From a virus, in IMG/VR virus record IMGVR_UViG_3300035698_014070, positions 10,229-74,228 of that record: a stretch of DNA of 64,000 nucleotides; one strand, written 5' to 3'. A program made the translations under genes and the position numbers. Positions within the stretch are counted from its first letter, which is position 1; each line of letters opens with the position of its first letter. Below the pieces are notes generated by a model. The model had not been told where the DNA came from. It did no database searches and worked only from the letters and a program-made list of their open reading frames with translations. Of this stretch, positions 8,197 through 42,267 are shown piece after piece.

Positions 8197-9956
8197 TGCA
8201 GAATCCGCTGAATTTAATTGCTAAGATCTTCAAGAAACCTGGTTCTGTACCAGCTGCCGATTTGATTTCAGTAATGAGAGATCTGCAGAATAATCTTGCG
8301 CAGATGCAGACACCAGATAATAAGACTAAGATGTCTAAAGAAGATCTTAGTAAGATATTATTGATGGGTTCACCTTCCACTTCAATGGATGATACTGTAT
8401 TCAATAGCATGGTTATAAACTATGAGCGCAGATCTGTTTATAAAGAATTAGATTTAAGCTTATCCCACTGGATGATGTCATCTGCTCTCGAATGCTACAG
8501 CGATTACGCCACCGTATATTCGCCTATACATGATTCTACAGTCTGGTGTACAGGTGATACAAAGTATGTTTCTAAGATAACAAACATGTTAGATCAGATA
8601 GGAGTAGAAGAGAAGATATTTGATTGGGCATGGACAATTGCTGCATATGGAGATTTGTTTGTAGAGTTAGTAGCAGATCCATCGCTTGGTATTATAAACA
8701 TAATGGATGATGACCATCCTATTAATGTATCTAGACTTGATAGAAATGGAGTATTAAACGGATTCTTTAGAACACCATTAGGAGAAGTAGGGCAGGAAGT
8801 AACGGCACAATTATTGCCACCATGGAAGTTTGTGCACTTTAGATTGTTATCAACTAAAAGAAAGAGACCATTGTACGGTGATCCTAATTTCACAGAGTAT
8901 AGAACTATGCACTTATTGTCTCCTGATGCTAGAAGAATATCAACAGCATACGGAACAAGCGTATTGATGAACGCGTTGCCTATATATAAACGTTTACGTA
9001 TGGCTGAAGATAGTCTGTTACTTACACGTTTAACTCGCGGTATTAAACGTTACATATATAAGGTCAAGGTAGATGGCTCTAATATAGATTCTATTTCAGC
9101 CATTATTGATGGTTATAAATCATTGTTGAAGACGGCTAGAGCGATAAACAGCAGTTCTTCTAGTCCATACTTTGAAGAGCGGTATGACCCAATGGGTTCA
9201 TTAGAAGATTTAATTGTGCCAGTGTGGGATAATGTGAATGATTTAGAAGTAGAAGAAATTGGTGGTGATGCAGATATACGATGGATTGTGGATATAGAGG
9301 AACTTCGCAATCAATTAGCTTCAGCATTACGTACTCCTTTATCTTTGTTAGGTGGATTTGTAGATGAGGCAACTGGTGCTTTAGGCAGTTCATCTATAGA
9401 GAAGCTAGATATGCGGTTTGCTAGATCAGCTCGTCGTCTTCAGCGTGCTTTGATTGTTGGTATAACTAGAATGGCACAAATAGATTTAGCATATCAAGGG
9501 CTGGATCCAGATACAAAATTGTTTGATATACATATGCCTGAAACATCTACTGCAGAAGAAGAGCAATTAAGAGAGTCATTAGATACAGCAATAGATGTGG
9601 TTGATAAAGTATTAATGACGTACGAGTCTGTGTTTGGTAAAGACTTGAATAAAGCAAAGCTGTTAGATTATTTAAATCAGAAGTTTCTGAAACTCAGTGA
9701 TTTGAACTTAACTGATTATGTAACAGCGTATGAAGGAAGTGATAGAGATAAGCAATTGAGTTTGATTGATGATGCTAAAGACGAGTTAGTGCATAATAAG
9801 GGTAGGCTTGCTAGAACAGCTAAGTCATTAGATTTTAAAGCACTAACAGAAACAAAAGAAGGTAAAGCTTTGTGGGAATTGAATAACCCAGATCGTGCAA
9901 GTATTAAGATAAAGATAAACGCTTCTAAGAAAAGAACTAAAGGTTCAAAGAAATGA
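8196..9956 (+). CDS. Portal protein, T4 gp20-like
   Basis: YGDLFVEL, FVHFR, YGTSVL...YKRLRMAEDSLLLTRLTR..RYIYKV, LASALRTP, DMRFAR motifs. Confidence 0.9.
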   Translation: MQNPLNLIAKIFKKPGSVPAADLISVMRDLQNNLAQMQTPDNKTKMSKEDLSKILLMGSPSTSMDDTVFNSMVINYERRSVYKELDLSLSHWMMSSALECYSDYATVYSPIHDSTVWCTGDTKYVSKITNMLDQIGVEEKIFDWAWTIAAYGDLFVELVADPSLGIINIMDDDHPINVSRLDRNGVLNGFFRTPLGEVGQEVTAQLLPPWKFVHFRLLSTKRKRPLYGDPNFTEYRTMHLLSPDARRISTAYGTSVLMNALPIYKRLRMAEDSLLLTRLTRGIKRYIYKVKVDGSNIDSISAIIDGYKSLLKTARAINSSSSSPYFEERYDPMGSLEDLIVPVWDNVNDLEVEEIGGDADIRWIVDIEELRNQLASALRTPLSLLGGFVDEATGALGSSSIEKLDMRFARSARRLQRALIVGITRMAQIDLAYQGLDPDTKLFDIHMPETSTAEEEQLRESLDTAIDVVDKVLMTYESVFGKDLNKAKLLDYLNQKFLKLSDLNLTDYVTAYEGSDRDKQLSLIDDAKDELVHNKGRLARTAKSLDFKALTETKEGKALWELNNPDRASIKIKINASKKRTKGSKK

Positions 9957-10234
9957 AAGAGCTAATAGAACAATTAATAAATGTATTAGAATCAAAATAT
10001 GGAACAGGCGATGTTGTAGTATTTACTTTAAAAAATTTACATAGCTCTGCTTATGCGGGTACTAAAATGAAAGAGCATGATGGTAAAAAATGTACAATAG
10101 TTAAATATTTACATACAGATTATGATTTTAATGTTTCATTCTATGATATAGAATTTGATGATGGATATACTCTAAGTAACGCAGGTGATTACATGTTAAA
10201 GCCTTATGTAAATCCTAGTTTGAGAGATATATAA
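9953..10234 (+). CDS. SLRDI-tagged small protein, SH3/KOW-like
   Basis: Leader MKELIEQLINVLE; GDVVVF...GKKCTIV...YDIEFDDG; ends NPSLRDI. Confidence 0.7.
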   Translation: MKELIEQLINVLESKYGTGDVVVFTLKNLHSSAYAGTKMKEHDGKKCTIVKYLHTDYDFNVSFYDIEFDDGYTLSNAGDYMLKPYVNPSLRDI

Positions 10235-10509
10235 TGTCAGATGATAAGTTAGCACAGGATATACAGGATATTATACTAGGAAAGCGTGTGCTAACATCAG
10301 AGAGTGATCAAGTATATGACCAACCTATAATACGTAAAGAGAATACAAGTGACCAAGTAAATGAAGATATGTCTTTTGGAGAAATGTTAGAACAAGTTTG
10401 TAATGATAGTGTGCAGCAAAATAAAGAAGATGATAAGATAACTGATGAAATGTGTAATGAGGTTATAAGTAAATGTAACATGAGTCTTATGAAGGATTTA
10501 CTAAAATGA
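10234..10509 (+). CDS. Acidic hypothetical protein, putative head/core component
   Basis: Coupled ORF downstream of the portal. Confidence 0.55.
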   Translation: MSDDKLAQDIQDIILGKRVLTSESDQVYDQPIIRKENTSDQVNEDMSFGEMLEQVCNDSVQQNKEDDKITDEMCNEVISKCNMSLMKDLLK

Positions 10510-10736
10510 GTTTTGAAAATATCTATGGTAGTATTCAGAATGAAATTCTTACAGAGATAAAGGATCAGCTCCTTGTTTCTGTTACGTTACCGATAGATGC
10601 TTTAACAGAATCCGTTGGTGATATTTATGTAAGTGTTTCAGGAAATTGTAATGCTTGGTTACAACAAAATGAGAATAATAAAGATATCTTAGCAGAAGCT
10701 TTATTGAATTTAGCTGATCGTGTAATGAAAGAGTAA
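10506..10736 (+). CDS. Hypothetical protein
   Basis: ATGA overlap. Confidence 0.55.
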   Translation: MSFENIYGSIQNEILTEIKDQLLVSVTLPIDALTESVGDIYVSVSGNCNAWLQQNENNKDILAEALLNLADRVMKE

Positions 10737-11114
10737 ATGGATACATTGTTAGAACAAGTAAATAAAGCGTTTAGAGAAACTAACGAAGCTAGACCAGCTA
10801 ATGCAGCTGTAGTAAAAGCAGAATTAAAGCGCGTATTTATTGACGCGCAATATACGATACGTGATCTTCATGATAGTACTTCTCCAGCATTTGACGCAGT
10901 AGATAATTCTATGAATTTTATTATACCAGTAAGAAATAATAGAAAATATACTGAAGAAGTTTTAGCAGAAGTTGGTTTAGCAGAAGAATATACTGAACTT
11001 ATCTTTAAAAAACAGGTAATAGCGGATCAGCTAAAAGATACAGAAGATTTAGAAATATTCGCAATTAAATTAGATCAAGCAATAAAGAATATGAGTTCGC
11101 TTAGAGATATATAA
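10737..11114 (+). CDS. SLRDI-tagged helical protein
   Basis: Leader MDTLLEQVNKAFRETNE; ends MSSLRDI. Confidence 0.7.
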   Translation: MDTLLEQVNKAFRETNEARPANAAVVKAELKRVFIDAQYTIRDLHDSTSPAFDAVDNSMNFIIPVRNNRKYTEEVLAEVGLAEEYTELIFKKQVIADQLKDTEDLEIFAIKLDQAIKNMSSLRDI

Positions 11115-12487
11115 TGATATCACAGTTATTAGAATTTATAGATAAAGAATTAAACGAAGGACTGAAGTCTGCTCGTCGTACGTATTTAGATAGCGATAAG
11201 ATAGATCAAGCAGAGTTTGATTGGTGTGTATCTGCTGATCCTACATCTCAAAAGAAATACTTAGATTGGATATGCAAACAGTACATTACGCATGATGAAT
11301 TAGATTTAGAAGGTTTTAAAACACTTATTAAAGACTTTTATACATATTCTGAAGATAAGTTAATAGATAATCCTGATATATATACATATAAAACAATAGA
11401 GCAAGTTGCTGATGCTATAACTGCTGCTAAATCTAAAGTAACTAAGAAGAAGAAAAAAGAAAGCGCAATAAAGGGTGCAGCAGTTTCTTTTGAAACAGAT
11501 AAATATGTTGGTTATAATATTTATTCTAATGAAGCGTCAAAGAAGTATGGTGCAGGAGCTCCATGGTGTACTAGATCAGAGGAATCACCATCACATTGGT
11601 TTGACTATAGGTATAATGATAGAAAAAGTTTTATTTATATACTTAATAAGATTAAACCAAAAGATAAGTACGCTCTTGTGTATATAGATAATAAAATACA
11701 TGAATGTTGGGATATTATTAATGATAATATTGGATTTAGTCAAGCATTTGATAATATGCAAAAAGTAGATGATAGTATTACTGATAGTTATATAGAGTTA
11801 TTTAAAGAAGGTATACCTGAATCAGGTGAATTACGTGATCCTAAAGAAACTATTGATAATGAGTATGATTTTTTAACATCTAAAGTAAAACGAATAACAG
11901 ATAAATTGTTTTTACAATTGTCTGGTGTTAAATCAAGATATCTTCTTAAAGATCATGAGATGTACATGATAGATTTGAATAAGAATATGTCTTCAGAAAA
12001 ACTTGCACAGAATATTGTATCACAATTAATTGCTAGTGTTAAAGATGATACGTCTAATACGTTACGCTGGTCGCGTTGGTTAAATGATGATAGTATAAAT
12101 AATATACAAATAGATGATTCTCTTATAAATATAATTGAATCATTTGGTGGTATACATAGATTGAAAACATTAGAAGAAGCAGATAAGTTTCTTGAAAATA
12201 TAATTAGAAAAGTAACTACAGAAATAAATCATGATGATATACGTAATGTAAAATTGTGGTTAGATTTACTTGGCGATATTTTGATGAAGGGTTTTGTGGG
12301 TGTGTGTTATTACAAGACGAAAGCGCCACATCCAAAAGGAGCAGCGTATTATCCAGTGCGTACATCTGATTATACAAAAGCAGATTCATTTGTTGGTGAA
12401 ATTAAAGATAATCCAAAATGGGCTCAAGAAGAGTTCGAATACTTTTTAGATGCTGTAATGAATAAATACAAAATGTTTGAATTATGA
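11114..12487 (+). CDS. Putative virion-internal protein with YG-x-x-x-x-WCT (PcfJ-like) domain
   Basis: Leader MISQLLEFIDKELNE; DPT..KKYLDWI and EASKKYGAGAPWCT motifs, as in large-phage proteins. Confidence 0.6.
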   Translation: MISQLLEFIDKELNEGLKSARRTYLDSDKIDQAEFDWCVSADPTSQKKYLDWICKQYITHDELDLEGFKTLIKDFYTYSEDKLIDNPDIYTYKTIEQVADAITAAKSKVTKKKKKESAIKGAAVSFETDKYVGYNIYSNEASKKYGAGAPWCTRSEESPSHWFDYRYNDRKSFIYILNKIKPKDKYALVYIDNKIHECWDIINDNIGFSQAFDNMQKVDDSITDSYIELFKEGIPESGELRDPKETIDNEYDFLTSKVKRITDKLFLQLSGVKSRYLLKDHEMYMIDLNKNMSSEKLAQNIVSQLIASVKDDTSNTLRWSRWLNDDSINNIQIDDSLINIIESFGGIHRLKTLEEADKFLENIIRKVTTEINHDDIRNVKLWLDLLGDILMKGFVGVCYYKTKAPHPKGAAYYPVRTSDYTKADSFVGEIKDNPKWAQEEFEYFLDAVMNKYKMFEL

Positions 12488-12514
12488 GTATTAATAGAAC
12501 AACTTGAAGAAATA

Positions 12515-12802
12515 ATGCTTACTGAAGAAAGCAGAATAGAGTTACTTGATCAGTGGTTTTCGAAGTATGAACGGTGGACTGATGAAATAGAACGTTTTTC
12601 TAGAAGGTTGATGGATGATTTTTATTGGATGGTGAAAAAACCAGAGCTAGAAATGAATAATGATAAAGAATTAACTAAGGCAGTAAAAGATATACATGAT
12701 ACAGCACAAAAAATTAATTTAAGCACTAATCCTTTATTTGATATGATTCGTAAAACAGAAAAACAGTTTAAACAAAAAGCAGCTTCTTTAAGAGATATAT
12801 AA
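12515..12802 (+). CDS. SLRDI-tagged helical protein (leader LIEQLEEI encoded in frame upstream of the ATG)
   Basis: Ends AASLRDI; 12488-12514 translates in frame to VLIEQLEEI. Confidence 0.65.
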   Translation: MLTEESRIELLDQWFSKYERWTDEIERFSRRLMDDFYWMVKKPELEMNNDKELTKAVKDIHDTAQKINLSTNPLFDMIRKTEKQFKQKAASLRDI

Positions 12803-13179
12803 TGTTAGAATTAATAAACAAACTGTTGGCATATGAACGGCACTTTTCACATAGTCATGGTGACAAGATAGATTTAGCTAAGTCATTGTTTCTTGAGAAT
12901 AAACATGATGAGTGCAGAGATGTGCTTAATACATTTCCTTCACAAGAAGTACTGCTAGGACAGTTGACTGAAAAACTTAAAGGTAAAAGTGTTTATAAGA
13001 CGCTTAAGCTTATTGCAGAAGGCAAGTGCGAAAGTAAGGCAGCTGAGATGAAAGGTCTTTTTAGTTTAGGAACACATATAGCGATAGAGTGTGAAAAAGA
13101 AAATAGTGAGTACGGTTTGTTATTGCCATATGTGTATGAAAAGCTTGGTCAACTTATATTTAATAAAGAAATAGATTAA
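12802..13179 (+). CDS. Hypothetical protein with leader MLELINKLLAYE
   Basis: TAATG overlap. Confidence 0.6.
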   Translation: MLELINKLLAYERHFSHSHGDKIDLAKSLFLENKHDECRDVLNTFPSQEVLLGQLTEKLKGKSVYKTLKLIAEGKCESKAAEMKGLFSLGTHIAIECEKENSEYGLLLPYVYEKLGQLIFNKEID

Positions 13180-13182
13180 TGA

Positions 13183-13959
13183 ATGATAATTTTACAGGAG
13201 TTTACTATGAATAATTTGATGAGTTCACTGATGGAAAGCGCTATGCATGGCGCAAATGATGTGTTCACTGTGCAGAAGTTTCGGTTCAGTGGACAAATCG
13301 TTGATTCTATTTCCTTTAAAGAAAAGGATGTAGCTTTAGAGTTTGCTAGTGATGTGGTTAAGTCTATGCCTTCTTCTAAGTATTTTGTTGAGGTGCATGA
13401 AGTAACAGATGAAGGTGGTTCTAATACGCTTTGGAGTAGTGAAGCTAAAGATCCTGACAAGAAGACGAAGAAGCCTGGTAAGGTGCCGACTAAGACGGAT
13501 GCTGAAGGTGATGGATCAATAACAAATATAAAGGCACCCAACGAGGCTAAGTCTGGTGATAAAAAGGAAAAGAAACCTGGTAAGGTACCAGTGAAGACTG
13601 ATGCAAAAGATGATACAGGTAGTGTGAAGAATATTAAAGCACCGAATGAAGGTGTGTTACCAGATCATGCTGAGCCAACTGATAAGAAGATTCAGGCTAT
13701 GGTTGAAGAAGAAGATACTGAAGAGAAATGCGATGAAGAAAGTGAAGATGATGACGAAGAGAATGTTGATGAAGCAAGTAAAAAGCAAACATTAAGTGAG
13801 TTTACAGAGTATATTAAATCAATATATGGATTTGAAGAAGGAGAATCTGAAGAAGATTTTGATGAAGCGGTTTATGTTGCAATGAAAGAACTGCATGGCG
13901 ACGAAATTTACGATGCATTATTAGATGCGTTTACTGCTGGTAAGAATACTAATGGATAA
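13183..13959 (+). CDS. Acidic, internally repeated putative prohead core protein
   Basis: Two KKPGKVPxKTDA...NIKAPNE repeats; shares a 20-aa motif with 24633..25847. True start probably 13207 (CAGGAG SD). Confidence 0.6.
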   Translation: MIILQEFTMNNLMSSLMESAMHGANDVFTVQKFRFSGQIVDSISFKEKDVALEFASDVVKSMPSSKYFVEVHEVTDEGGSNTLWSSEAKDPDKKTKKPGKVPTKTDAEGDGSITNIKAPNEAKSGDKKEKKPGKVPVKTDAKDDTGSVKNIKAPNEGVLPDHAEPTDKKIQAMVEEEDTEEKCDEESEDDDEENVDEASKKQTLSEFTEYIKSIYGFEEGESEEDFDEAVYVAMKELHGDEIYDALLDAFTAGKNTNG

Positions 13960-14287
13960 GTTAATAGAACAACTTGAGAGAAGTTTAAATGAAGAAGGTG
14001 AATTGAATACACCTGAATCATACTTAATGAAACGAGCATCAGATATTTCAGATAAATTAGATACAATTGAAGATGCGCTTGCAGATATACACAATGATAT
14101 ATATGATATTACGATGGCTTTACCACCAGGTGGACCTACTTATAAAAAATGGGGTAATCAGTTTTACAATTTAAAAATAGAAGCAGGAAATGCTTTTGAA
14201 CATGGAGATAACTTTTTATACCGTTTGAATAAGTTTATAGATAAGTTTATGAGTGAGTACAAAGCTATCACATTGAGAGACATATGA
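13952..14287 (+). CDS. TLRDI-tagged helical protein
   Basis: Start reassigned to ATG 13952: MDKLIEQLERSLNEE; ends AITLRDI. Confidence 0.7.
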   Translation: MDKLIEQLERSLNEEGELNTPESYLMKRASDISDKLDTIEDALADIHNDIYDITMALPPGGPTYKKWGNQFYNLKIEAGNAFEHGDNFLYRLNKFIDKFMSEYKAITLRDI

Positions 14288-14658
14288 AAGAACTATTAGA
14301 AAAGTTAAGTAAAGTGATTAAAGCATCTCTTGATACAGATGCAGAGTATATAGAAGAGTATGTAGACGCTTTAGAAACTGTAATAGATCGGTATACTAAT
14401 GCACAATATAGTATAGAACGTGCGGTAAATGCACTATGTCATGCTGTTGATGGTGTGAAGATAGGGTTAGAAGATCGTAAAGATCAAAAGTCAATTGAGT
14501 TTATTGAAGAGGTTTTTGGTAACATCACTGAGATAGATAACAACAACGCTGATTTGGTTAACAATGAAAGACTTAAAATTATGGTTGAGTCTATAGATGG
14601 TATTAGAAAAGCTTTAGCTGATATGGTTTTAAGTAAGAAAAGTTTACGGGATATATAA
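14284..14658 (+). CDS. SLRDI-tagged helical protein
   Basis: Leader MKELLEKLSKVI; ends KKSLRDI. Confidence 0.7.
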   Translation: MKELLEKLSKVIKASLDTDAEYIEEYVDALETVIDRYTNAQYSIERAVNALCHAVDGVKIGLEDRKDQKSIEFIEEVFGNITEIDNNNADLVNNERLKIMVESIDGIRKALADMVLSKKSLRDI

Positions 14659-14787
14659 ATGCATAATTTATTTGTAATTAGAACTTGTTCGGCTCCAAGT
14701 TCTCCTTTCGCAGGCCGGCTGTTCACAAAGCAGTCGGTCTGTTTACATAATGAAAACAGTATGTTATAATACATAAAGGAATAAACA

Positions 14788-15132
14788 ATGGCGTTAGAAA
14801 ACATTTCAGATAATTATAAACCTACTGTTGAGCAGTCACCTGAGATTGTTATTACAGACGCGACAAAAACTACTGTTGTTGCTGCTATTACTAGTACAAG
14901 AATAAAAGTAGTAGATTTTAAGATAAGTTCAGATACTGCTGCAGAGTGGAAAATATATTCTGGAGACACTGTTATTTGGACATTATATGGTGGAGCAGAT
15001 TGGGGATGGTCTGAAAGATCTGAAATTCATTACCCAGTTTTTATTACTAATGTTGGAGAAGCCTTTTTTGTTGAAGGCAGTGTTGCCTCATTAAATGCTA
15101 GTGTTCACGTAAAATATATTGAAGTAGATTAA
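14788..15132 (+). CDS. Beta-rich virion structural protein candidate
   Basis: AAGGA SD; composition suggests a beta-sandwich. Confidence 0.55.
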   Translation: MALENISDNYKPTVEQSPEIVITDATKTTVVAAITSTRIKVVDFKISSDTAAEWKIYSGDTVIWTLYGGADWGWSERSEIHYPVFITNVGEAFFVEGSVASLNASVHVKYIEVD

Positions 15133-15190
15133 AAAGGAACATTTATTAATAATTATTATGCTGATTATAATATCGTAAACGGAGTTATTA

Positions 15191-16624
15191 ATGGGACGAA
15201 TAGATGATAGAGAAATTTGGCTTGTTGCAGATCATGCAGATGATAAAGAAAAGATTACTGTTATAGATGAATATGGTAACTTATTACAAGAAATTGTAAC
15301 CACGGCGGCCCAAGATAATATCTCGTGGGATTCTACTGATAAGACGCTTTGGCTAAACAAAGAACACGTTGCAGGAACGGACGATTATGTAAGTAATATT
15401 TATTCATCAGCGCAGGTACTTTCTAAAACCACCATTGATGCTGCTGACTTTGATCTGGAGGATGTTTGTCATGATCCGTCTGATGATTCTCTGTGGATGA
15501 TAAGTGATAACGCAGGAAATCTAGTTTTGCAGAACCGAAGCAAAGCTGCTCCTAATACGATTATTGCGTCTCACAACATTTCAACAACGATAGAAAGCCC
15601 ACAAGGGGTCGCGAGTGATCCGACTGATTTCACATTGTGGATATCAGATAATATTCCTTTTGCGGGGCGGGTTGGCTTAATTCATCATGTCGATAAAGGA
15701 GGTAATATTTTCACGGCGGATACGATTACAATCGTTGAGGCTTTGCACTCTTCTTTAACGGGGCAAGCAGGATTGTTGCAAGGAATTTGCGTGGATGATC
15801 GGGACGGAACACTTTGGTTTAGCGTCAGAAATACTTATATTTATCATCTCACTCGTACTGGTACTTTGATAAAGGTTGTGGCTACGCCTCTTACTGACCG
15901 AGGAGCTGCCAGTGGTCCAACAGGTTTATGCTTATGTCCATGGGGGACACGAGCATACGCGCTTCGTCCTATTGCTTCTTATCAATTATATGATGATCAA
16001 GAGAATGGGCATGTCACTGCAGAGGTTGGAACTAGTGCAACGTTGGAAGGAGGGGATGACACAGACGATAAGAGCGTGGTTGGACCCATTAGCAAGGGGT
16101 TTAATCTGAATGGTATTGATGATTATGTGGATTTTAATGATGTAGCTCTTACGGATAATACATGGTCAATCTCCTGTTGGCTGAACATTCCATCTCTTGC
16201 ATCGGCTATGGTACTTTTGGGTGATGCTGATAATGAAGATTGGATTAGGTTTAACTCAACTAGTGAGATTTTTTTCAAGTTTGCCAATATAAGTCAGACT
16301 CTTATGAATACTAGCATCGCTATTCCTATTGGTGAATGGTTCCACTTAGTGATTACAAGATGGGGAATCACTTATACGTCGGTTTATGTGAATGGAACGT
16401 TACAAGAAACAAAAACAATTGGTAGTGCTGCTCCATTTACACCAGAATTTCTTGGTCAAAAAGATGATAATGGTTGGTTGGCAGGCAAAGTGTCTAATTT
16501 AATGTTATTCAATTATACTCTTAATATAGTAGATATTGCTTATCTTTACAATGCCGGGGCAGGACAGGACATCATTACAGAAGAAGAAACTGCTGATCGT
16601 ACAAGTAACAATGCTTGGTGGTAG
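15191..16624 (+). CDS. Beta-propeller plus LamG/concanavalin-like protein
   Basis: Repeated D..D.TLW blades; C-terminal FNLNGIDDYV, WSISCW, GEWFHLVIT, VYVNG, LYNAG LamG motifs. Confidence 0.7.
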   Translation: MGRIDDREIWLVADHADDKEKITVIDEYGNLLQEIVTTAAQDNISWDSTDKTLWLNKEHVAGTDDYVSNIYSSAQVLSKTTIDAADFDLEDVCHDPSDDSLWMISDNAGNLVLQNRSKAAPNTIIASHNISTTIESPQGVASDPTDFTLWISDNIPFAGRVGLIHHVDKGGNIFTADTITIVEALHSSLTGQAGLLQGICVDDRDGTLWFSVRNTYIYHLTRTGTLIKVVATPLTDRGAASGPTGLCLCPWGTRAYALRPIASYQLYDDQENGHVTAEVGTSATLEGGDDTDDKSVVGPISKGFNLNGIDDYVDFNDVALTDNTWSISCWLNIPSLASAMVLLGDADNEDWIRFNSTSEIFFKFANISQTLMNTSIAIPIGEWFHLVITRWGITYTSVYVNGTLQETKTIGSAAPFTPEFLGQKDDNGWLAGKVSNLMLFNYTLNIVDIAYLYNAGAGQDIITEEETADRTSNNAWW

Positions 16625-16625
16625 G

Positions 16626-20340: not shown

Positions 20341-20349
20341 TGGTGAGAT

Positions 20350-24632: not shown

Positions 24633-25847
24633 ATGAGTAGTGAACTTTTAAAAAGAATTGTAGAGAATAGAGATACCATTTTTGGAGAAATTAATAATAC
24701 GTTATCTCCAAGGCAAATTAGAGAACATATTCGTAGTATGTATAAAAAGGTTGCAGAAGATGTTGGTTTAACTTCAGAAGAAGTAAAGTACTTTGTTCAT
24801 TATATGTCCAAGAACTTTGCTAATGATTTTACAAAAATATCTGAAGATAAGATATATCATTATGCATCGTTATTGCTTGAAGGTAAACTTCCTAATCATG
24901 CTGAACCTACTGATAAAAAGGTTCAAGCTATGATAGAAAAAGATGATGATGAAGAGGAAGAAGAAGAAGAAGAGGTTATTGATGATGAAGTAGAAGATGA
25001 TGAAAGTGATGAAGAGCTTCCACCTGAAGGTGCTAGTTTACGTGATATAGATAGTGAAGGCGGTGGTGGCGATGCTCCTGATATGAGTGATGCAGAACCA
25101 AGTGGTGCTGAAGAAGAAGTCGAAATAGATAAAGAGTACTTTGGTAGTACTGGTGATGATGGCTTTTATTACATGGTTGGCTCTGAAGAAGAAGGTGCTG
25201 ATGATATTAAAATACTGAACCAAGAAGGTGATGAAGTTTATTCTGCAATTGCTAAAGAAATGGATATACAAGATATTACTGCAGTGATTGTAGATGCAAT
25301 TACAGATCTTGAAATGGATGCAGTATCATATGATATTATTGTGAAGTATATTTTCCCGAAACTTCAGGATGATGATGAAGAAAAAGAAGATGAAGAAGAA
25401 GTTCCTACTGATGAGGAAATGCCTACTGACGAAGAGATGCCTGAAGAAGATGAAGAAATTCCTATGGAATCAGTGAATAAGGCGAATGAAACTAAAAAAG
25501 CTGATAAAGCTAAGAAAGATAAAGCTGATAAAATTAAGAAAGATAAGAAAGACAAAGCTGATAAAGTCAAAAAAGATAAAAAAGATAAGGCTGAAAAAGC
25601 TAAAGCTAAGAAAGCTAAAAAAGATGAGAGTGTAATAGAACACGAAGTTAATGGTGAAAAACATACTGGATGTATTTTAGAAAATACTTCTGATTTTACT
25701 CGTGTTAAAGTAGATAACAAAGAATATAAATTAAACGTACCTTTTGCTGAAGTATATAAAGACGAACACGGTAACATTACTAACGAGTGCATGAAAGAAT
25801 TGATTGAAGATTTTGTAGCTCTTAGTGTTACATCTGAAAGTAAGTAA
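24633..25847 (+). CDS. Putative prohead scaffold/core protein
   Basis: Very acidic tracts plus a K/D/A repeat; lies just upstream of the protease; internal GASLRDI. Confidence 0.55.
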   Translation: MSSELLKRIVENRDTIFGEINNTLSPRQIREHIRSMYKKVAEDVGLTSEEVKYFVHYMSKNFANDFTKISEDKIYHYASLLLEGKLPNHAEPTDKKVQAMIEKDDDEEEEEEEEVIDDEVEDDESDEELPPEGASLRDIDSEGGGGDAPDMSDAEPSGAEEEVEIDKEYFGSTGDDGFYYMVGSEEEGADDIKILNQEGDEVYSAIAKEMDIQDITAVIVDAITDLEMDAVSYDIIVKYIFPKLQDDDEEKEDEEEVPTDEEMPTDEEMPEEDEEIPMESVNKANETKKADKAKKDKADKIKKDKKDKADKVKKDKKDKAEKAKAKKAKKDESVIEHEVNGEKHTGCILENTSDFTRVKVDNKEYKLNVPFAEVYKDEHGNITNECMKELIEDFVALSVTSESK

Positions 25848-25864: not shown

Positions 25865-27466
25865 ATGACTCAGTTACGCGAAGACATTATAGAAAATTAT
25901 CAGTTACTTGAAACTGATACAACTAAGCTGCCTGATGGTGTGTTATGTCGAGTGCAATATCCAATATGCAATATTGGTATATTGAATCGCAATAACCGGG
26001 TGTATGAGAAGGAATTGTGGGATGGTGTGTTAGCTAATAAAGAAGTAGCGCAAAAGCTAGAGAAGCGTTCTCTTTATGGTCAGGCTGAACATCCCAAAGA
26101 AACACAGAGTAATCTTGAAAAGACTTCTCATGTCATACATAGTATGAATGTAAACGAAGATGGATCTAAAATTTCTCAGACTATGGATGTTTTGGATACA
26201 CCATATGGACGGATTATAGACACACTCTTACGTGCAGGTTGTGGTGTTGGCGTATCTACACGAGCAGAAGGTGAATTAGAAGAATGCACTGATGAAAGTA
26301 ATGGAAGTAAATATTTTCGCGTAAAACCTGAGTCATATGATTATGTTACAACCGATTTTACGGCTGATCCTAGTACTATTGATCCATATCCTGAGTCTGT
26401 GCAGCGCGATGTTGTTAGAGAAATAGCAAAAGACTTACATGATAATAGTATAGATAGAGCTTTTGCAATGCCTTTACTTGAATCAATGCAAGTAGATGAA
26501 GCAAAAGAATTGTTGAAAGAAAATAAAGAAAAACCTTTGTTTGAAGACTTTGACAGTGCTTTTGATTGGTTTAAAGATTATTTTAATACCATGGAAGAAG
26601 GAAAAGATAAAGATAAAATTCGTGAAATAATTACTGAAAGCAACTTTGATCCTAATGAAATAATTCCAGCACAAGCATCAACATCTATTGAAGATACAGA
26701 AAAAGAAATAGAAGAAGTAGAAGATGAAGTTGAGAAAGATATTAAAGATGGTGAAACTCAGAAAGATACGACTGAAGAAACTGTTGATGATGCTGAAGAA
26801 TCTATAAATCCATTACTAGCTGTGAAAGATGCACTTATTAAAGAAGCATCTACTCGTGCTGAATTAGAAAAAGCAATAGAGATTATTGAAGAACATCAGT
26901 GCGATGAAAATAATGTAGCTATTGCAGTTTGTAAGATTAAAAATCTACAACAGAAATTAAAAGAACATAGTAAATCATATGATGCAAGAACGAAAGCATT
27001 ACAAACTGCGCTAACTTGTAATGATAAGAAAACAGTTAAAAAAGTAAACGCTTTAAAGATTTCTTTAAAAGAATATTTTAATAAATATAAAACACTTGAT
27101 GAAGTTACAAAAAAGAAATTAGATAAATTAGAACAATGTAATAAAAAAATTGTAACAGAACATAAAGATCGTGTTATAATGATACAAGAAGAATGTGATA
27201 AGAAGATTGTTTCTAGTTACATCACTATGAAATTAGAGCAATCTGGTTTAAAACTGGCAGATAAATCTCGAGCACTTCTTGAAGATTGTAAAACTGTTGG
27301 TGAAGCGGAAACTATGTTGTCTGACTTACGATATACTATGCGTGAAAATGCCCTTCATCATCATTCAGGTGTATCTGAAGAAGCGATTATTATTGAATCG
27401 ACAACTAGTAAATTAGAAGATGAAATCGTAAAGAATGTTAGGTCTTCTTTGGCCGGCATGTCTTGA
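25865..27466 (+). CDS. Prohead protease (T4 gp21-like) fused to a coiled-coil scaffold region
   Basis: NRNNRVYE, GQAEHP, SHVI, LDTPYGRI, GVSTRAEG, DFTADPS motifs. Confidence 0.9.
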   Translation: MTQLREDIIENYQLLETDTTKLPDGVLCRVQYPICNIGILNRNNRVYEKELWDGVLANKEVAQKLEKRSLYGQAEHPKETQSNLEKTSHVIHSMNVNEDGSKISQTMDVLDTPYGRIIDTLLRAGCGVGVSTRAEGELEECTDESNGSKYFRVKPESYDYVTTDFTADPSTIDPYPESVQRDVVREIAKDLHDNSIDRAFAMPLLESMQVDEAKELLKENKEKPLFEDFDSAFDWFKDYFNTMEEGKDKDKIREIITESNFDPNEIIPAQASTSIEDTEKEIEEVEDEVEKDIKDGETQKDTTEETVDDAEESINPLLAVKDALIKEASTRAELEKAIEIIEEHQCDENNVAIAVCKIKNLQQKLKEHSKSYDARTKALQTALTCNDKKTVKKVNALKISLKEYFNKYKTLDEVTKKKLDKLEQCNKKIVTEHKDRVIMIQEECDKKIVSSYITMKLEQSGLKLADKSRALLEDCKTVGEAETMLSDLRYTMRENALHHHSGVSEEAIIIESTTSKLEDEIVKNVRSSLAGMS

Positions 27467-30074: not shown

Positions 30075-30083
30075 AAATTAATA

Positions 30084-30125: not shown

Positions 30126-30148
30126 ATACTATTACGAAAGGTAGAGCA

Positions 30149-30604: not shown

Positions 30605-30607
30605 ATT

Positions 30608-31720: not shown

Positions 31721-31732
31721 GAAAGCAGTAAA

Positions 31733-31820
31733 ATGTCTATAGGTACATACAAAAGAACAGTTGAACATAAGAAAAGAATTTGATATATTAAGAGATAAAA
31801 GTTCTTTAAGAGATATTTAA
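31733..31820 (+). pseudogene. Deletion remnant: NUMOD3-like N-terminus plus orphan SLRDI tail
   Basis: MSIGTYKRTVEHKKRI* (31733-31783); overlapping other frame reads ...FDILRDKSSLRDI* (to 31820). Confidence 0.45.
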
Positions 31821-32455: not shown

Positions 32456-32475
32456 ATCTTTAAGAGATATTTAAT

Positions 32476-35145: not shown

Positions 35146-35146
35146 C

Positions 35147-36679: not shown

Positions 36680-36688
36680 AGATATATT

Positions 36689-37618
36689 GTGGATTATGAA
36701 TTATATAAAAAATTGTTTTACACAGTAAATGAGCAGACATCTGATTCTAATTATGAACCTTCTCGTGATTTTTTAGATGGAGTAGATAAAATATTTTTGT
36801 CTTTTTCAGAAGAAGAGTGCGAATGGATAGAACAAAACCGCTACTTTTTTTCTGCTAGTAAAATGATTGCTGGCAGTAAAAAAAATGAAGATGGAACATA
36901 TGATTCTAATGTAGATTTAGATTTTAGCAATAAAAAATTTAAAGATGGGAAGTTACCGTTTAAATTAAATAAAGTAAATGGCAGTTTTAAAGTTTTTGAT
37001 TGTGGATTAACAACATTAGAAGGTTGTCCTAAAATAGTTACTAAATTGTTTAGTTGTTTTAAAAATAATCTTACATCATTAAAAGGAGGTCCTGAAGAAG
37101 TTGGAATGCACTATTCTTGCATGGCAAATAAACTTAAATCTTTAGAGTTTCTTCCTAAAAAACTTAGGAGTTTAGATTGTTCAATTAATAAATTACGTTC
37201 ATTAGATAATTTTGTTCCTAATGAATTATCTTCTTTTAGTTGTTTTAAAAATAATCTTACATCATTAAAAGGTAGCCCAACAAAAATAATTAGTTATTTT
37301 GATTGCAGTAGCAATAAACTAACTTCATTAGAAGATGGACCTAGATACGTAGGTGGGGGTTATATTTGTGCAAGAAATAAATTAATATCTTTAAAAGGAG
37401 CTCCTAAATCTATTACTGTAAGTGAAGGGTTTAGTAATTTTAATTGTTCGCATAATGAGTTAACATCATTAGAATTTGCTCCACAATACGTATCTGGAAC
37501 TTTTGATTGTAGTAAAAATAAACTAACTTCTTATGAATTTATACCTAAAAAAGTAAAAAAAGTTATTAGTAAAGGTAATCCAATAACATACGAACAATGG
37601 ATAAAACAAAATGAGTAA
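36689..37618 (+). CDS. Leucine-rich repeat protein (LTSLxGxPxxV type)
   Basis: About 9 divergent 20-26 aa repeats F.C..N.LTSL.G.P. Confidence 0.85.
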   Translation: MDYELYKKLFYTVNEQTSDSNYEPSRDFLDGVDKIFLSFSEEECEWIEQNRYFFSASKMIAGSKKNEDGTYDSNVDLDFSNKKFKDGKLPFKLNKVNGSFKVFDCGLTTLEGCPKIVTKLFSCFKNNLTSLKGGPEEVGMHYSCMANKLKSLEFLPKKLRSLDCSINKLRSLDNFVPNELSSFSCFKNNLTSLKGSPTKIISYFDCSSNKLTSLEDGPRYVGGGYICARNKLISLKGAPKSITVSEGFSNFNCSHNELTSLEFAPQYVSGTFDCSKNKLTSYEFIPKKVKKVISKGNPITYEQWIKQNE

Positions 37619-37979: not shown

Positions 37980-37988
37980 AATTAATAA

Positions 37989-40439
37989 ATGTTTAATGAA
38001 TTATACGAAAATTTAGCTTCTGTTTTAGAGAATAATGGGCATGAGTACTCTAATGTTCAGATAACAATAACAGGTGAACTTTCTAAAAAAATGCTTGATT
38101 ATGGTAAAAGTATACCTGATGAAGAAATTTATACTGATGAGAATGATCCATCGTATGGTAGAGAAAAAGATACACATGTTACTGTGCGGTATGGATTAAC
38201 AACAGACAATCCATCTGAATTACAAAAAGCTTTTACAGATTTTGGCATAATAAAATTAAAAATGAATAATATATCTGTTTTTGAGACAGATGATTATGCT
38301 ATAATTAAAATAGATATTGATAGCAATGATTTACATAAAGCGAATGAATTAGTTGGTGAAACAGAAGATGTACCTGGTGAAACATATAAAGAGTACAAAC
38401 CGCATGCTACAATTGCTTATGTAAAGAAAGGTGCTGGAAAGAAATACATTGATAATAAAACATTTAATGGTGAAGAAATAACTGTTAATACAATTGAATT
38501 GAATGATAGGAACGATACTAAACACACGATAAATTTATCTCGAGATATGTCTGCAGAATGTAAGTTGCAGAAGATCCATAAGGCGACTGTGAGTGAAAAT
38601 GCAGACATTAACGAATTAGATTGGAAAAAGACAGCTAAGGTTGCGGCTGCTACAACAGCAGTAGGATTGGTTGGATTGCTAGGCCAGCAAAAAGCATATA
38701 GAAATTATGATAAAGGACTTATAGCGAACCAATCTGCTTCTGCTGTTACTAAATCTGCTGAGCAACCTGAAGTTCAGCAGAAACTGGCAAAGGAAACTAA
38801 CGTAAATGAAATAGATATAGATAAGATTGCACAAATAGAGTCATCTAATAATCCTACCGCTGTTAATAAAAGAACAGGTACACGCGGGTTATGCCAGTTT
38901 ATGGAGCCAACTTGGAATGATGTTATTAAAAAGATGAAAGTTGATTGGACATGGGAAGATGCTTTTGATCCTAATAAAAACAGAACAGCAGCTGAGTTTT
39001 ATATAAACAAAGACATACCACGTATGTTACAATATTATAAGATAGAGGATACAAATGAAACAAGACTTGCGTCTTATAACTGGGGTATTGGTAATGTGAA
39101 AAAAGCAGTTCGTAAGTATGGAAAAGATTGGATTAATCACATTCCTACAGAAACTCGTAATTATATTCAGAAGTATAATGCATTACAAGAAGTAATTCAG
39201 CATGATGGTGGAAACTTTCAGCACTTTTTTGTTGATGCAAAAGGTTACGCAATACAAGTAGCAAGTCATGTAGAGTATGTAAAGAAAAAACTTGGTACTA
39301 ATTATGCTGATGAAAAAGCAGTTAATAAGTATATGAAAAAGAATAAACTGATACGTTTAGGGCAGACTGAAGATGTTTTGTTTTTCGTATCAGTTGCCAG
39401 TAAAGTAACAGATGTTCAAATAAAAGTATTAAGAAAGCTTCTTCGTTCTGGTACAACATTGTATTACGATATATTTAAAGGAACTAAACGTATTAATTCT
39501 GGTTCAGGATTTAAAGAGTTTTTAGAAGATCTTGAATATTATAAAATGTATAAGCCTAAAACAAACGAATCTACTATTGATTTTCCTAGAGAAGATTTAC
39601 CTACGGAGATATGGACAAAAGAGAATGGTGAATATGTTTTAAGAGATGATGTGTATAATAAGATCGTGAAAACACTGGCACAATATCCTAACGTTGATTT
39701 AAATAAATTAGCTACAACGATGCACATAACTGGTTCAATCGGGACTAATCAGCATGATGATGATTGTGATTTGGATGTACATATATTACCATTAGAAGGT
39801 AAAGCAGATAATCATTTACAAAAAGATGTATTTAAGTGGTTTAATGAAAACAGAGACAAAATTGATGGATACGTTGGTGAACATCCTATTGAAGTATATA
39901 TTCAGTTAGATCCACAGCAAGAATTGTTTGCAGATGCGGCGTATGATGTTGGTAATAAGAGATGGTTAAAGGGTCCTAAGAAAGCTGCTTCGTCTTATAA
40001 TCCGTATGAAGAGTTTAAAGAATTGTTAGTAGATGTAGTAAGTGATGCAGAAGAAGCTGATAAGGTATTGGGTGAACTTAAGCGAGATACAATAGATTAT
40101 ACAACTATTGTTCGCGCGATGCGCTACCTAAGTACAGGTGATAAAGAACACTTACACGATATGCTATTATCAAAGTCGGTTGAGATTGATGCAGATATAC
40201 GTGCGTTGATTAAACAAAAAGGAGAGTGGACAAACGCTCGCCATATGTCATCGCAAGCCACACCCGAAGATGCCTTAAAAGATGTAGACATTGCTAAAAG
40301 ATGGAAAGATGAAAATGCAAAATTTAAATTTATGAATCGCTACAATTACGTCAAGCTTATAAAAGATCTTGAAGATATGATTAAAGATGAAGAGCTTTCT
40401 GATAGAGAAATAAATCTTATACAAAGAACTTTAACATGA
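37989..40439 (+). CDS. Polyvalent protein: 2H phosphoesterase (Acb1/gp57B-like) + SLT lytic transglycosylase + nucleotidyltransferase-like domain
   Basis: THVTVRYG / PHATIAY (two HxT); QIESS..P.A..GLCQFM..TW, SYNWG, ETRNY; ITGS...DLDVHI...PIEVY. Confidence 0.75.
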   Translation: MFNELYENLASVLENNGHEYSNVQITITGELSKKMLDYGKSIPDEEIYTDENDPSYGREKDTHVTVRYGLTTDNPSELQKAFTDFGIIKLKMNNISVFETDDYAIIKIDIDSNDLHKANELVGETEDVPGETYKEYKPHATIAYVKKGAGKKYIDNKTFNGEEITVNTIELNDRNDTKHTINLSRDMSAECKLQKIHKATVSENADINELDWKKTAKVAAATTAVGLVGLLGQQKAYRNYDKGLIANQSASAVTKSAEQPEVQQKLAKETNVNEIDIDKIAQIESSNNPTAVNKRTGTRGLCQFMEPTWNDVIKKMKVDWTWEDAFDPNKNRTAAEFYINKDIPRMLQYYKIEDTNETRLASYNWGIGNVKKAVRKYGKDWINHIPTETRNYIQKYNALQEVIQHDGGNFQHFFVDAKGYAIQVASHVEYVKKKLGTNYADEKAVNKYMKKNKLIRLGQTEDVLFFVSVASKVTDVQIKVLRKLLRSGTTLYYDIFKGTKRINSGSGFKEFLEDLEYYKMYKPKTNESTIDFPREDLPTEIWTKENGEYVLRDDVYNKIVKTLAQYPNVDLNKLATTMHITGSIGTNQHDDDCDLDVHILPLEGKADNHLQKDVFKWFNENRDKIDGYVGEHPIEVYIQLDPQQELFADAAYDVGNKRWLKGPKKAASSYNPYEEFKELLVDVVSDAEEADKVLGELKRDTIDYTTIVRAMRYLSTGDKEHLHDMLLSKSVEIDADIRALIKQKGEWTNARHMSSQATPEDALKDVDIAKRWKDENAKFKFMNRYNYVKLIKDLEDMIKDEELSDREINLIQRTLT

Positions 40440-40516
40440 AAAAATTAATTGAACAACTTGAAAAATGTGTTACTGAAATAAATCCTATAAGTGAAAAGGT
40501 GAAAATTTATGGATAA
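40436..40516 (+). CDS. 26-aa mini-ORF consisting of leader plus duplicated tail
   Basis: Manual translation MKKLIEQLEKCVTEINPISEKVKIYG*; overlaps both neighbours. Confidence 0.45.
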   Translation: MKKLIEQLEKCVTEINPISEKVKIYG

Positions 40517-41159
40517 GTTAGTTGAATATCTTATTAAAGAAGTAGAGAAGCAAGCTTCAGATGAAGAGTTTTTAGATAAAGTTGTTGATGGAACATACAC
40601 ATTAAACTCTGATGGCAGTTATGATGTAGTTGGTAATGTAAAAGTGTTTAAAACGCAATCAACTTTTATTTTTGTAAAATTTAGAAAAGTAAGTGGAAAT
40701 TTTATTTGTAGTTATAATGACTTAACAACATTAGAAGGCGCACCTAAAGAAGTAGGTGGAAATTTTACTTGTAACAACAATATCTTAACAACATTAGAAG
40801 GCGCACCTAAAGAAGTAGGTGGAAATTTTACTTGTAGTTATAATGACTTAACAACATTAGAAGGCGCACCTAAAGAAGTAGGTGGAAATTTTACTTGTAG
40901 TTATAATGACTTAACAACATTAGAAGGCGCACCTAAAGAAGTAGGTGGAAATTTTACTTGTAAAAACAATTACTTAACAACATTAGAAGGCGCACCTAAA
41001 GAAGTAGGTGGAAATTTTACTTGTAAAAACAATGACTTAACAACATTAGAAGGATTAAATTATGTTAAAGGTAAAATTATTTATAATAATAATCCTATGA
41101 ATTGTGAAGAAGAAATAAAAAAGCACAAACAAAGAAAAGCATCACTTAGAGATATATAA
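40509..41159 (+). CDS. SLRDI-tagged leucine-rich repeat protein
   Basis: Leader MDKLVEYLIKEVE; 22-aa repeats; ends KASLRDI. Confidence 0.85.
   Translation: MDKLVEYLIKEVEKQASDEEFLDKVVDGTYTLNSDGSYDVVGNVKVFKTQSTFIFVKFRKVSGNFICSYNDLTTLEGAPKEVGGNFTCNNNILTTLEGAPKEVGGNFTCSYNDLTTLEGAPKEVGGNFTCSYNDLTTLEGAPKEVGGNFTCKNNYLTTLEGAPKEVGGNFTCKNNDLTTLEGLNYVKGKIIYNNNPMNCEEEIKKHKQRKASLRDI
40694..41053 (+). repeat. Near-perfect 66-bp coding tandem repeat, about 5.5 copies
   Basis: Unit GGAAATTTTACTTGT-(12 variable nt)-TTAACAACATTAGAAGGCGCACCTAAAGAAGTAGGT. Confidence 0.95.
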
Positions 41160-41160
41160 A

Positions 41161-41631
41161 ATGTCTAAAATGATTCCTAATAGATCTATTGCAGCGTTTA
41201 GAAATTTTAATGACGTAAGCGTAAATAATTTCGGCTTTGAAGTAGATTTGTATATACCTAATAATGTATACGCAGATGTTGAAGATAATGATGCGTACTC
41301 TAAACCTGGAGATTACGAATACGATCATTATACTGCTATGGTATTTATAGATTGGTCGCCAAACATATATAGATTACGAAATATTGGTATGTATACAGAA
41401 GGTGAGTTACCTATACTAGCTCGTTTTAAAACAACAGCGACTAATGATACAGGCGTGTCTGAAAGTGTTGATATTGTAAGGCATAGTTATATTAAGGTAC
41501 CAACACAGTACGTGCCTGATAAAACGAGTGTCACTGATGAGTTTGATATAGTAGATGTATTGACATTTAATATGCATGATGCGGCGTTAGCTAAACAGTA
41601 CAAGTTGGCGCCAAGGAGAACGTTAGACTAA
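41161..41631 (+). CDS. Possible head-closure/neck protein
   Basis: Position before tail-completion and sheath genes; beta-rich. No firm motif. Confidence 0.4.
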   Translation: MSKMIPNRSIAAFRNFNDVSVNNFGFEVDLYIPNNVYADVEDNDAYSKPGDYEYDHYTAMVFIDWSPNIYRLRNIGMYTEGELPILARFKTTATNDTGVSESVDIVRHSYIKVPTQYVPDKTSVTDEFDIVDVLTFNMHDAALAKQYKLAPRRTLD

Positions 41632-41834
41632 TGCAGAAAGTAACAAACTTAACGAATGAAAGTATACATTTATATATTTCAGGAATGGTTAAGCTAATTC
41701 TTGGTCCACATGAGAGTATAACTGTGGATATTAGTGGTATAATGAATTTGCCTGAAATACGCTCTAAGATTTTGATTGGTGAAAACTTGACAGAAGTAAA
41801 TCCAGTAAGTGGAAAGATGCCTTTGTATGGATAA
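41631..41834 (+). CDS. Small hypothetical protein
   Basis: KVTNLT...I.L......LILGPHES pattern; coupled ORF. Confidence 0.55.
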   Translation: MQKVTNLTNESIHLYISGMVKLILGPHESITVDISGIMNLPEIRSKILIGENLTEVNPVSGKMPLYG

Positions 41835-42267
41835 GTTAATTAAACAATTAATCGATGAAATGGCAAAATCCAGTAAAAAAACATTAGCTCAAATGGATTT
41901 AAAAGAAATTCCAGAGATAAGTAAAGTGAAACATTTAAATCAATTAGCTGTGTGGGCAGCTAGACTTGGTTATCCAGAGCTTATTCATCTTGCATTAGAT
42001 AATGGAGCTAAGTTAGAACAAAAAGATATTGAACAATTAGCTATGCACGCGCTAAGATATAAATCTATTCCTATGGCTGAAATAGCAGCAGATTTAGGTT
42101 GGGACAAAGATATGGATATTGCTGATGATAGAGCTGGATTAGATTCTGAAAATATTGATTGGCAAATAAAAAAGTGTAAAAATAATAAAACATCAAATAT
42201 TGATTTTTACATATGGTTACGTGATAAATTTAATATAGTACCACTTGGTAGTTTAAGAGATATTTAA
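41827..42267 (+). CDS. SLRDI-tagged ankyrin-repeat-like protein
   Basis: Start reassigned to 41827: MDKLIKQLIDE; LAVWAARLGYPELIHLALDNGA ankyrin-like; ends GSLRDI. Confidence 0.65.
   Translation: MDKLIKQLIDEMAKSSKKTLAQMDLKEIPEISKVKHLNQLAVWAARLGYPELIHLALDNGAKLEQKDIEQLAMHALRYKSIPMAEIAADLGWDKDMDIADDRAGLDSENIDWQIKKCKNNKTSNIDFYIWLRDKFNIVPLGSLRDI

Follow-up and report, generated by a model that had tools for sequence, protein, structure and literature searches.

The leader sequence of bacteriophage T4 reads MKTYQEFIAE. The T4 internal proteins Ip1-3 are described as having only an N-terminal packaging leader in common; for their loci, two polymorphic hot spots, at least ten alternative genes are recorded (PMC12373910; PMC3012670, both citing Repoila et al. 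1994). Ten residues of the T4 capsid targeting sequence (CTS) are enough for targeting; the protease gp21 cuts after the glutamate of an L/I-x-E motif and itself has LIE near its N-terminus; an aspartate at the cut position stops cutting while targeting persists; and T4 Alt, which is processed at both ends, provides a two-ended precedent (PMC9026906). In encapsulins a short C-terminal targeting peptide on unrelated cargo proteins loads them into the interior of an HK97-fold shell (PMC8346489). Here we analyse a window of 64,000 nucleotides (positions 10,229 to 74,228 of the IMG/VR virus record IMGVR_UViG_3300035698_014070) in which accessory genes with a common N-terminal leader and a common C-terminal tag lie among T4-type head genes. 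The closest known system is formed by the T-even internal-protein (CTS) loci. With moderate confidence, we regard the region as coding for the head and neck of an uncultured myovirus from salt lakes whose head genes are of the T4 type, and the accessory genes as addressed by peptides, the DNA shared by their ends being chiefly a by-product and their turnover being under selection.

The window lies within a linear record of 74,228 nucleotides with a CheckV completeness of about 44%. Its G+C content is 33%, its real genes are all on the + strand, and near-identical DNA is known solely from salt-lake metagenomes. In the whole record, pentapeptides of the form [ST]LRD[IF] occur 13 times, all on the + strand between 6632 and 42264 (window coordinates, as below), and none lies in the remaining 10 kb. 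A stop codon directly follows 12 of the 13. SLRDI followed by a stop ends eight to nine open reading frames (ORFs), where it is kept at the peptide level. The tagged genes are found around the portal gene (starts at 7316, 9953, 10737, 12488, 13952 and 14284) and upstream of the tail sheath region (40509 and 41827), and two further occurrences of the peptide depart from the common form:

7316..7816, + strand: tagged gene 1 (MKSLIKEL ... NSLRDI, TAG stop), upstream of the portal gene; ESM Atlas lead to ART-PolyVal-type phage clusters (23% of members)
9953..10234, + strand: tagged gene 2 (MKELIEQL ... PSLRDI), an ORFan whose stop overlaps the next ATG
10737..11114, + strand: tagged gene 3 (MDTLLEQV ... 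SSLRDI; Ser=TCG, Leu=CTT)
12488..12802, + strand: tagged gene 4 (... ASLRDI), with the leader 17-mer at 12491-12507
13952..14287, + strand: tagged gene 5 (MDKLIEQLE ... ITLRDI; Asp=GAC), with the 17-mer at 13961-13977
14284..14658, + strand: tagged gene 6 (MKELLEKL ... KSLRDI; Arg=CGG), which ends the translationally coupled block
40509..41159, + strand: tagged gene 7 (MDKLVEYL ... ASLRDI), cargo a leucine-rich repeat (LRR) domain with 21-residue repeats
41827..42267, + strand: tagged gene 8 (MDKLIKQL ... GSLRDI), cargo ankyrin-like
6443..6649, + strand: small ORF ending in the tag variant VSLRDF directly before its stop, without a typical leader
25035..25049, + strand: internal SLRDI (Arg=CGT) within an acidic scaffold-like protein (24633-25847) encoded just upstream of the protease gene

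At the 3' ends, the shared DNA AAGAGATAT(A/T)TAATG codes for the C-terminal SLRDI and then the stop. For eight of the 12 tag stops the next ATG overlaps or lies at most 4 nucleotides away (TAATG, ATATGA, TAAAATG, TAATATG). At the 5' ends, the 17-mer TTAATAGAACAACTTGA occurs without mismatch at 12491 and 13961 and with one at 40445, three matches where 0.04 would be expected, and ATGGATAAGTTA is exact at 13952, 40509 and 41827. Both 5' sequences, like the 3' ends, exceed chance frequency, and both code for an N-terminal peptide M-[DK]-[KE]-L-[IVL]-[EK]-[QYK]-L. The wider pattern M-x-x-L-[ILV]-[EK]-x-L opens eight to ten ORFs whose remainders are dissimilar. Its close forms are MDKLIEQLE, MKKLIEQLE, MDKLVEYL and MDKLIKQL; looser forms are MKELIEQL (9953), MDTLLEQV (10737), MKELLEKL (14284) and MKSLIKEL (7316). 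Most leaders carry L-I-E, L-L-E, L-V-E or I-K-E at residues 4-7.

The preliminary description of this DNA had placed the shared 5' and 3' sequences at the ends of tagged genes that follow the portal, with stops overlapping or nearly abutting the next start, and these observations stand. Two of the leader sites call for correction. The leader at 40445 sits in a mini-ORF of 26 residues (40436-40516) and not in a tagged gene. That at 12491 reads one base out of frame with the ATG nearest to it (12484); its frame is that of an upstream TGA and of the ATG at 12515. The leader-coding stretch 12484-12515 follows directly, in frame, behind the TGA stop of the 457-residue gene 11114-12487. A contig from the independent metagenome run X2 crosses this stretch and no indel was reported there, so the frame offset is no assembly slip. 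Read-through of the TGA, a +1 shift, or a decaying leader with the start at 12515 are possible.

The proteins between these ends are unrelated (LRR, ankyrin-like and small helical ORFans) and accessory. All-against-all blastp found no similarity between tagged proteins outside the ends (no pair with E<0.1), in keeping with the cargo between common ends of the preliminary description, and none of them matched a Pfam or PHROG family. The LRR cargo of gene 7 belongs to a very large family (15,972 representative clusters at E<=1e-3) whose termini differ widely; SLRDI terminates none of the 20 clusters read except the query's own 94% cluster. For the product of gene 8, ankyrin clusters of the ESM Atlas were matched, and the AlphaFold2 model (predicted local distance difference test, pLDDT, 65) gave top Foldseek matches that were all ankyrin/DARPin, at weak E values of about 0.25; two weak but concordant routes thus suggest that the protein is ankyrin-like. 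The corresponding model for gene 1 was unusable (pLDDT 36). The 93-residue product of gene 2, searched against 5.8 billion proteins, returned only itself.

Two observations concern proteins akin to these. Several short members of the LRR family found elsewhere (P0080, P0096, P0151) end in ...AGF(x)(x)NA(R/K)W directly before the stop, which may be an address or partner-binding tail of another lineage. In the middle of the array, the 457-residue protein 11114-12487 has a leader-like start, MISQLLEF; the search of 5.8 billion proteins returned one 58% fragment and two weak matches for it, and its distant relatives carry PF13306 (BspA-type LRR).

Common ends on dissimilar proteins might be relics of descent from one ancestral small head protein, the tagged genes being paralogues that arose by tandem duplication, diverged in their middles and kept their functional ends. 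Five tagged proteins are indeed similar in size (93-125 residues) and look helical or coiled-coil (weak coiled-coil family matches), a tandem cluster occupies 9953-14658, and duplication of a gene junction is documented below. Against paralogy stand the blastp result just given, the origin of the LRR cargo in a huge family found elsewhere without these ends, the different fold of the ankyrin-like cargo, and the slot genes of relatives, which are different and non-homologous. We consider paralogy improbable.

To separate likeness of peptide from likeness of DNA, we compared the codons used. Those of the tag vary: serine is AGT, TCT, TCG or TCA, leucine TTA, TTG or CTT, arginine AGA, CGG or CGT, aspartate GAT or GAC, and isoleucine ATA or ATT. 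Because the serine, leucine and arginine residues persist across switches of codon family, the tag is selected as a peptide, which is a direct observation. In a permutation test, codons for the same peptides were drawn from the usage of the window's own genes. Identical codon pairs among the tags numbered 179 over all five codons, against 132 expected (p=0.003), and 134 without the arginine codon, against 115 expected (p=0.10); among the leaders there were 77, against 59.5 expected (p=0.035). Since the excess vanishes without the arginine codon, it comes mainly from arginine encoded as AGA, which is used in 10 of 12 tags compared with 37% AGA usage in the window's genes. Tag DNA with AGA places AAGAGAT, resembling a Shine-Dalgarno (SD) sequence, between -12 and -6 relative to the following ATG. 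Those genes of the window that have a strong start signal (for the scaffold-like protein, protease, sheath and tube) carry AGGAGAT between -13 and -7. This SD-like context is likewise seen directly. The tags without AGA, at 14641 and 25035, are both among the four that lack a coupled downstream gene; the remaining two uncoupled tags, at 6632 and 7799, use AGA. DNA identity beyond that predicted from peptide and codon bias is small. The 5' DNA end is the leader, its DNA only marginally more alike than the peptide demands, and at the 3' DNA end the codons of a peptide tag appear to serve a second time, as the region that binds the ribosome for the overlapping next gene. The conserved DNA ends proposed in the preliminary description are present, and result for the most part from selection on the peptides, from codon bias and from the SD-like AGAGAT.

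The same data bear on the idea that the 3' motif acts solely as a signal in RNA or DNA (for ribosome binding, for coupling or as a late promoter), SLRDI being an accident of the frame fixed by TAATG. The resemblance of AAGAGATAT to the window's SD sequence AGGAGAT at the right distance, the over-use of AGA in tags, and the presence of the motif in an intergenic remnant (31803) and out of frame behind a stop (32457) would all fit. However, serine, leucine and arginine survive codon switches that alter the signal (TCG CTT, TTA CGG, TTA CGT), the serine and leucine codons lie outside the SD sequence and their residues are still invariant, and the peptide is retained at 14641, which has no gene behind it, and at 25035, in the interior of a protein. 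Promoter-like sites in 6000-16000 are at chance level; a scan of that interval for promoters and terminators gave nothing above shuffled sequences and no promoter for each cassette. A signal alone is a disfavoured and very improbable explanation.

Loss, duplication and fusion of these genes have left traces in the window and in metagenomic reads. The clearest case comes from run X2, which differs from the window's probable source in sample and year. A contig of 1,379 nucleotides, identical to the window on both sides, joins 10748 to 11070 and skips 321 nucleotides, removing in frame the cargo (10749-11069) of tagged gene 3 (10737-11114). The product is a leader-tag ORF of 18 residues, MDTL joined to LDQAIKNMSSLRDI, which retains the stop/start overlap with the next gene; the full-length form is covered in X2 as well. 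The joint lies in a microhomology of 9 of 10 nucleotides, TTAGA(A/T)CAAG, between the L-E-Q of the leader and an L-D-Q 14 codons before the stop. This microhomology is due to chance, and the tag DNA played no part in the joint. Further traces lie within the window:

40436..40516, + strand: mini-ORF of 26 residues (MKKLIEQLEK; 17-mer at 40445-40461) overlapping both neighbours (ATGA, ATGGATAA); repeat family D14
31743..31820, + strand: orphan tag remnant of 25 codons ending in SSLRDI, its stop overlapping the ATG of gene 31820-32455; repeat family D16
32457..32474, + strand: SLRDI and stop, shifted to the +1 frame, immediately after the end of gene 31820-32455
36689..37618, + strand: untagged LRR paralogue of tagged gene 7 (blastp 7e-32), ending 9 residues earlier without SLRDI

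The mini-ORF joins a leader to the final 14 residues of a protein homologous to that of ORF 41631-41834, and the 70-nucleotide junction 40472-40541 recurs, 71% identical, at 41790-41859, LRR cargo following the one and ankyrin-like cargo the other. The junctions 12784-12818 and 31802-31836 (D16) are 86% identical over 35 nucleotides, and an identical 19-mer, at 31803 and with the tag at 32457, brackets gene 31820-32455. The LRR paralogues resemble each other until about 12 codons ahead of the stop, from where the tagged copy continues to SLRDI. In all three collapsed cassettes the stop/start overlap is retained. Deletion, duplication and remnant formation are thus directly visible, and the genes are modular (leader, cargo, tag) and dispensable, having been gained, lost, duplicated and fused with joints at module borders. 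The earlier expectation that rearrangement joints fall at the leader and tag boundaries and that coupling is preserved is borne out by the 321-nucleotide deletion, the duplicated 70-nucleotide junction, the point at which the LRR paralogues diverge, and the retained overlaps.

Several candidates for further cassette variants were rejected as having short sides or 80% likeness and as belonging to other phages or repeats: the joints 8654>9256, 9044>9255 and 13760>12192, and the islands 9256-9328, 10115-10169, 11485-11526 and 14173-14209. Population variants in runs X2, X3 and X5 also include a 1-nucleotide deletion at 13191, close to where gene 13183 is annotated to start, and a compensated -1/+1 pair at 14316/14323; a cluster of substitutions among them falls in tagged gene 14284-14658 (14316-14465).

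These traces could mean that the end DNA (tag, stop/start and leader junction, 15-35 nucleotides) is itself a substrate for recombination, homologous or microhomologous, through which cargo is exchanged among slots and among phages with frame and coupling preserved, as in a plug-in array. Repoila et al. are said to have proposed in 1994 that T-even internal-protein loci shuffle via conserved flanking sequences. The 35-nucleotide (86%) and 70-nucleotide (71%) junction patches precede unrelated cargo, a gene is bracketed by an identical 19-mer, the natural deletion connected the leader, through TTAGA(A/T)CAAG, with a position 14 codons ahead of the tag's stop, LRR cargo occupies a different slot in one relative (L024, below), and CTT, the rarer leucine codon, is common to three of the four LIEQL leader copies. 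On the other side, the identity of the end DNA is near that predicted from peptide and codon bias, and one identical 15-mer pair in a set of 66 tag pairs is no more than expected (by our own estimate from codon usage). Patches of 15-35 nucleotides at 70-86% identity are poor substrates for homologous recombination. The sole observed event is a deletion that did not use tag DNA, and replacement of cargo was seen in none of four independent runs, in which contigs hide rare variants. Survivorship under selection predicts the same breakpoints: joints biased to module borders are no proof of DNA-driven exchange, because selection for leaders, tags and downstream translation leaves the same pattern. 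We think exchange driven by the end DNA unlikely, if the strongest of the rivals to peptide addressing; loss and duplication at the ends are seen, and the sequence evidence falls short of demonstrating cassette swapping or DNA-driven exchange.

Comparison with other viruses was possible over distant relatives only. The phage GenBank collection contained no DNA match to the window. Scans of IMG/VR and of Joint Genome Institute (JGI) metagenomes with the portal protein gave relatives whose portals were just 36-62% identical, and when the tagged LRR protein and its ankyrin-like counterpart were scanned against IMG/VR there was no match. Protein clusters at 90% contained only near-identical population variants with 1-2 substitutions. 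The slot comparison below rests on relatives with portals 44-62% identical, and on the following genes as fixed points:

8196..9956, + strand: portal gene of the T4 gp20 type, a core gene (Pfam Portal_T4 7.6e-25; phrog_1497)
12802..13179, + strand: conserved head-module gene for a protein of 125 residues with a leader-like start (MLELINKL) and no tag; right border of the slot, with homologues in L001, L009, L020, L025 and L029 (1e-9 to 2e-28)
25865..27466, + strand: prohead protease gene of the T4 gp21 / Peptidase_S77 type (phrog_207 2.5e-27; Pfam PF03420 1e-6)

Portal, protease and capsid genes are conserved in the relatives, as is the gene for the 125-residue protein. Between the portal and that gene, the five relatives with both borders have 1 to 8 ORFs over 0.3-2.9 kb, which are non-homologous to those of the window and mostly also to one another. 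The loci are thus polymorphic between relatives, and a cargo deletion is polymorphic within the population; the interleaving of accessory genes with conserved head genes, asserted in the preliminary description, is confirmed by this comparison. In L024 an LRR homologue (6e-34) lies directly behind the portal. It has no SLRDI and bears L024's own 17-residue leader, common to its neighbour gene. The leader pattern opens 12 of 90 ORFs behind the portal in the relatives, as against 2 of 204 upstream of it, while SLRDI is absent from their proteins. Since the relatives have the leader and none of their proteins ends in SLRDI, we take the leader to be clade-wide and the C-terminal tag to be lineage-specific. 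An exact scan of IMG/VR with the 17-nucleotide tag junction returned 19 single matches, about the number due to chance by our own estimate, and no contig with more than one tag.

Taking these results together, we favour the following explanation. Eight to nine accessory genes would code for unrelated proteins that bear two address labels. The first is the N-terminal M-x-x-L-(I/L/V)-E-x-L, containing the L/I-x-E motif cut by gp21-type prohead proteases, and its putative role is probably like that of the T4 CTS. The second, the lineage-specific C-terminal SLRDI-COOH, is probably a docking motif for a component of the prohead. The shared end DNA would stem chiefly from these peptide constraints in an AT-rich codon background, the 3' tag DNA (AAGAGATAT-ATA-ATG) supplying the SD region, spacer and start of the next coupled gene. 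The genes would occupy hyperplastic slots, with deletion, duplication and fusion as the routes of their turnover, and the survivors, keeping leader, tag and coupling junction, would make the array look cassette-like. Packaging into the head, cleavage of the leader and docking of the tag are steps that we infer, as is any recombinational role for the 15-35 nucleotides of end similarity.

Four points weigh against this explanation. The internal SLRDI of the scaffold-like protein means that a free C-terminus may not be needed. The predicted propeptide, six residues if cut after LIE, is shorter than the T4 CTS. The link between AGA and coupling is not significant alone (8/8 coupled against 2/4 uncoupled tags; Fisher p about 0.09 by our own count). 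Finally, the marginal excess of identical leader codons and the shared CTT make some gene conversion, or recent common descent of leader DNA, possible.

A stronger form of addressing can be conceived, in which a cleavable N-terminal L-I-E leader is paired with a C-terminal L-R-D-I that mimics the L-x-E site with aspartate at P1, and the tag-stop/start-leader junction is at once a portable address, a ribosome-binding site and a recombination patch. If true, cargo would be replaceable in frame without polar effects. We give this version little credence.

Should peptide addressing with the tag as a loading label for head proteins be correct, this phage would show that T4-like viruses can address cargo from both protein ends, and that the DNA coding for the address can double as the translation start region of the next gene. 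Such a double role would account for the survival of emptied cassettes as tiny leader-tag ORFs. Two uses would also follow: a compact, testable scheme by which capsids could be loaded with foreign proteins, and a means of recognising, in uncultured phages, anti-defence proteins that are injected. A caution applies more widely: short identical DNA at gene ends can stem from peptide selection and codon bias, and alone is no evidence of a recombination mechanism.

The surrounding genes include a T4-type head assembly set of gp20 portal, gp21 S77 protease and gp23 capsid protein (PHROGs 1497, 207 and 138). The gp23-like protein is encoded in two parts: ORF 27476-28447 matches Pfam Gp23 (3.8e-9) at positions 5-182, and ORF 29457-30074 matches phrog_138 at positions 269-402. 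Between them lies ORF 28513-29460, with a TnsA-like endonuclease N-terminal domain (PF08722, 9e-13); the split gene fits an intron or other intervening element. The tail sheath is encoded by ORF 42976-44637 (phrog_23, 1e-79), and the two ORFs just upstream of it, 41161-41631 and 42267-42959, candidates for the neck and tail-terminator genes of the preliminary description, have no Pfam or PHROG family match. The acidic head-module protein 13183-13959 and the scaffold-like protein 24633-25847 have in common a stretch of 127 nucleotides (13647-13773 / 24878-25004) that is 72% identical, corresponding to 56% identity over 46 residues (E=9e-13). The 1,210-residue protein 20350-23982 contains many tandem repeats of 21 nucleotides (7 residues) of the G-S-V-T-G-A-V type (families D3, D4 and D11) and is probably a fibre or decoration protein. 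ORF 57017-57574 has a long poly-threonine run encoded by ACN repeats.

With integron cassettes this array shares unrelated promoterless genes with recurring border sequences. Its borders, however, are coding direct repeats and not the imperfect inverted repeats of attC, and there is no attI/Pc arrangement. An integron-like system was rejected, since the tyrosine recombinase PF00589 is absent from the 74-kb record (about 44% complete) and inverted-repeat sites are lacking. With encapsulin cargo the phage shares a conserved C-terminal peptide on unrelated proteins and an HK97-fold shell; encapsulins differ in their consensus, are non-phage and have neither portal nor protease, so that the analogy is functional only. 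To regard SLRDI as an encapsulin-type tail, or L-R-D-I as an uncuttable look-alike of the protease site, is speculation.

The likeness to the T-even internal-protein loci goes further. Both have a T4-type portal, a gp21-type protease and a gp23-type capsid protein, and in both dissimilar proteins with a short L/I-x-E leader are encoded at non-essential, variable loci; the leaders K-L-I-E, T-L-L-E and E-L-L-E of the present phage fit the gp21 motif. The head proteins here have remote sequence identity to those of T4, and packaging and injection of the tagged proteins are putative. No homology of leader or cargo to the T4 internal proteins was found: the tagged proteins match no Pfam or PHROG family, and the leader differs from MKTYQEFIAE. 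Whereas the T-even internal-protein genes form separate loci with their own promoters, those described here are translationally coupled inside late head and neck operons, and they lack the 70-bp flanking promoter or inverted-repeat element of the T-even loci. The invariant C-terminal SLRDI-COOH is a feature of this phage that has no counterpart in T4. As judged from sequence, what the phage appears to add to the theme of CTS-bearing internal proteins is this C-terminal tag, together with a second function of its DNA in binding the ribosome for the gene that follows.

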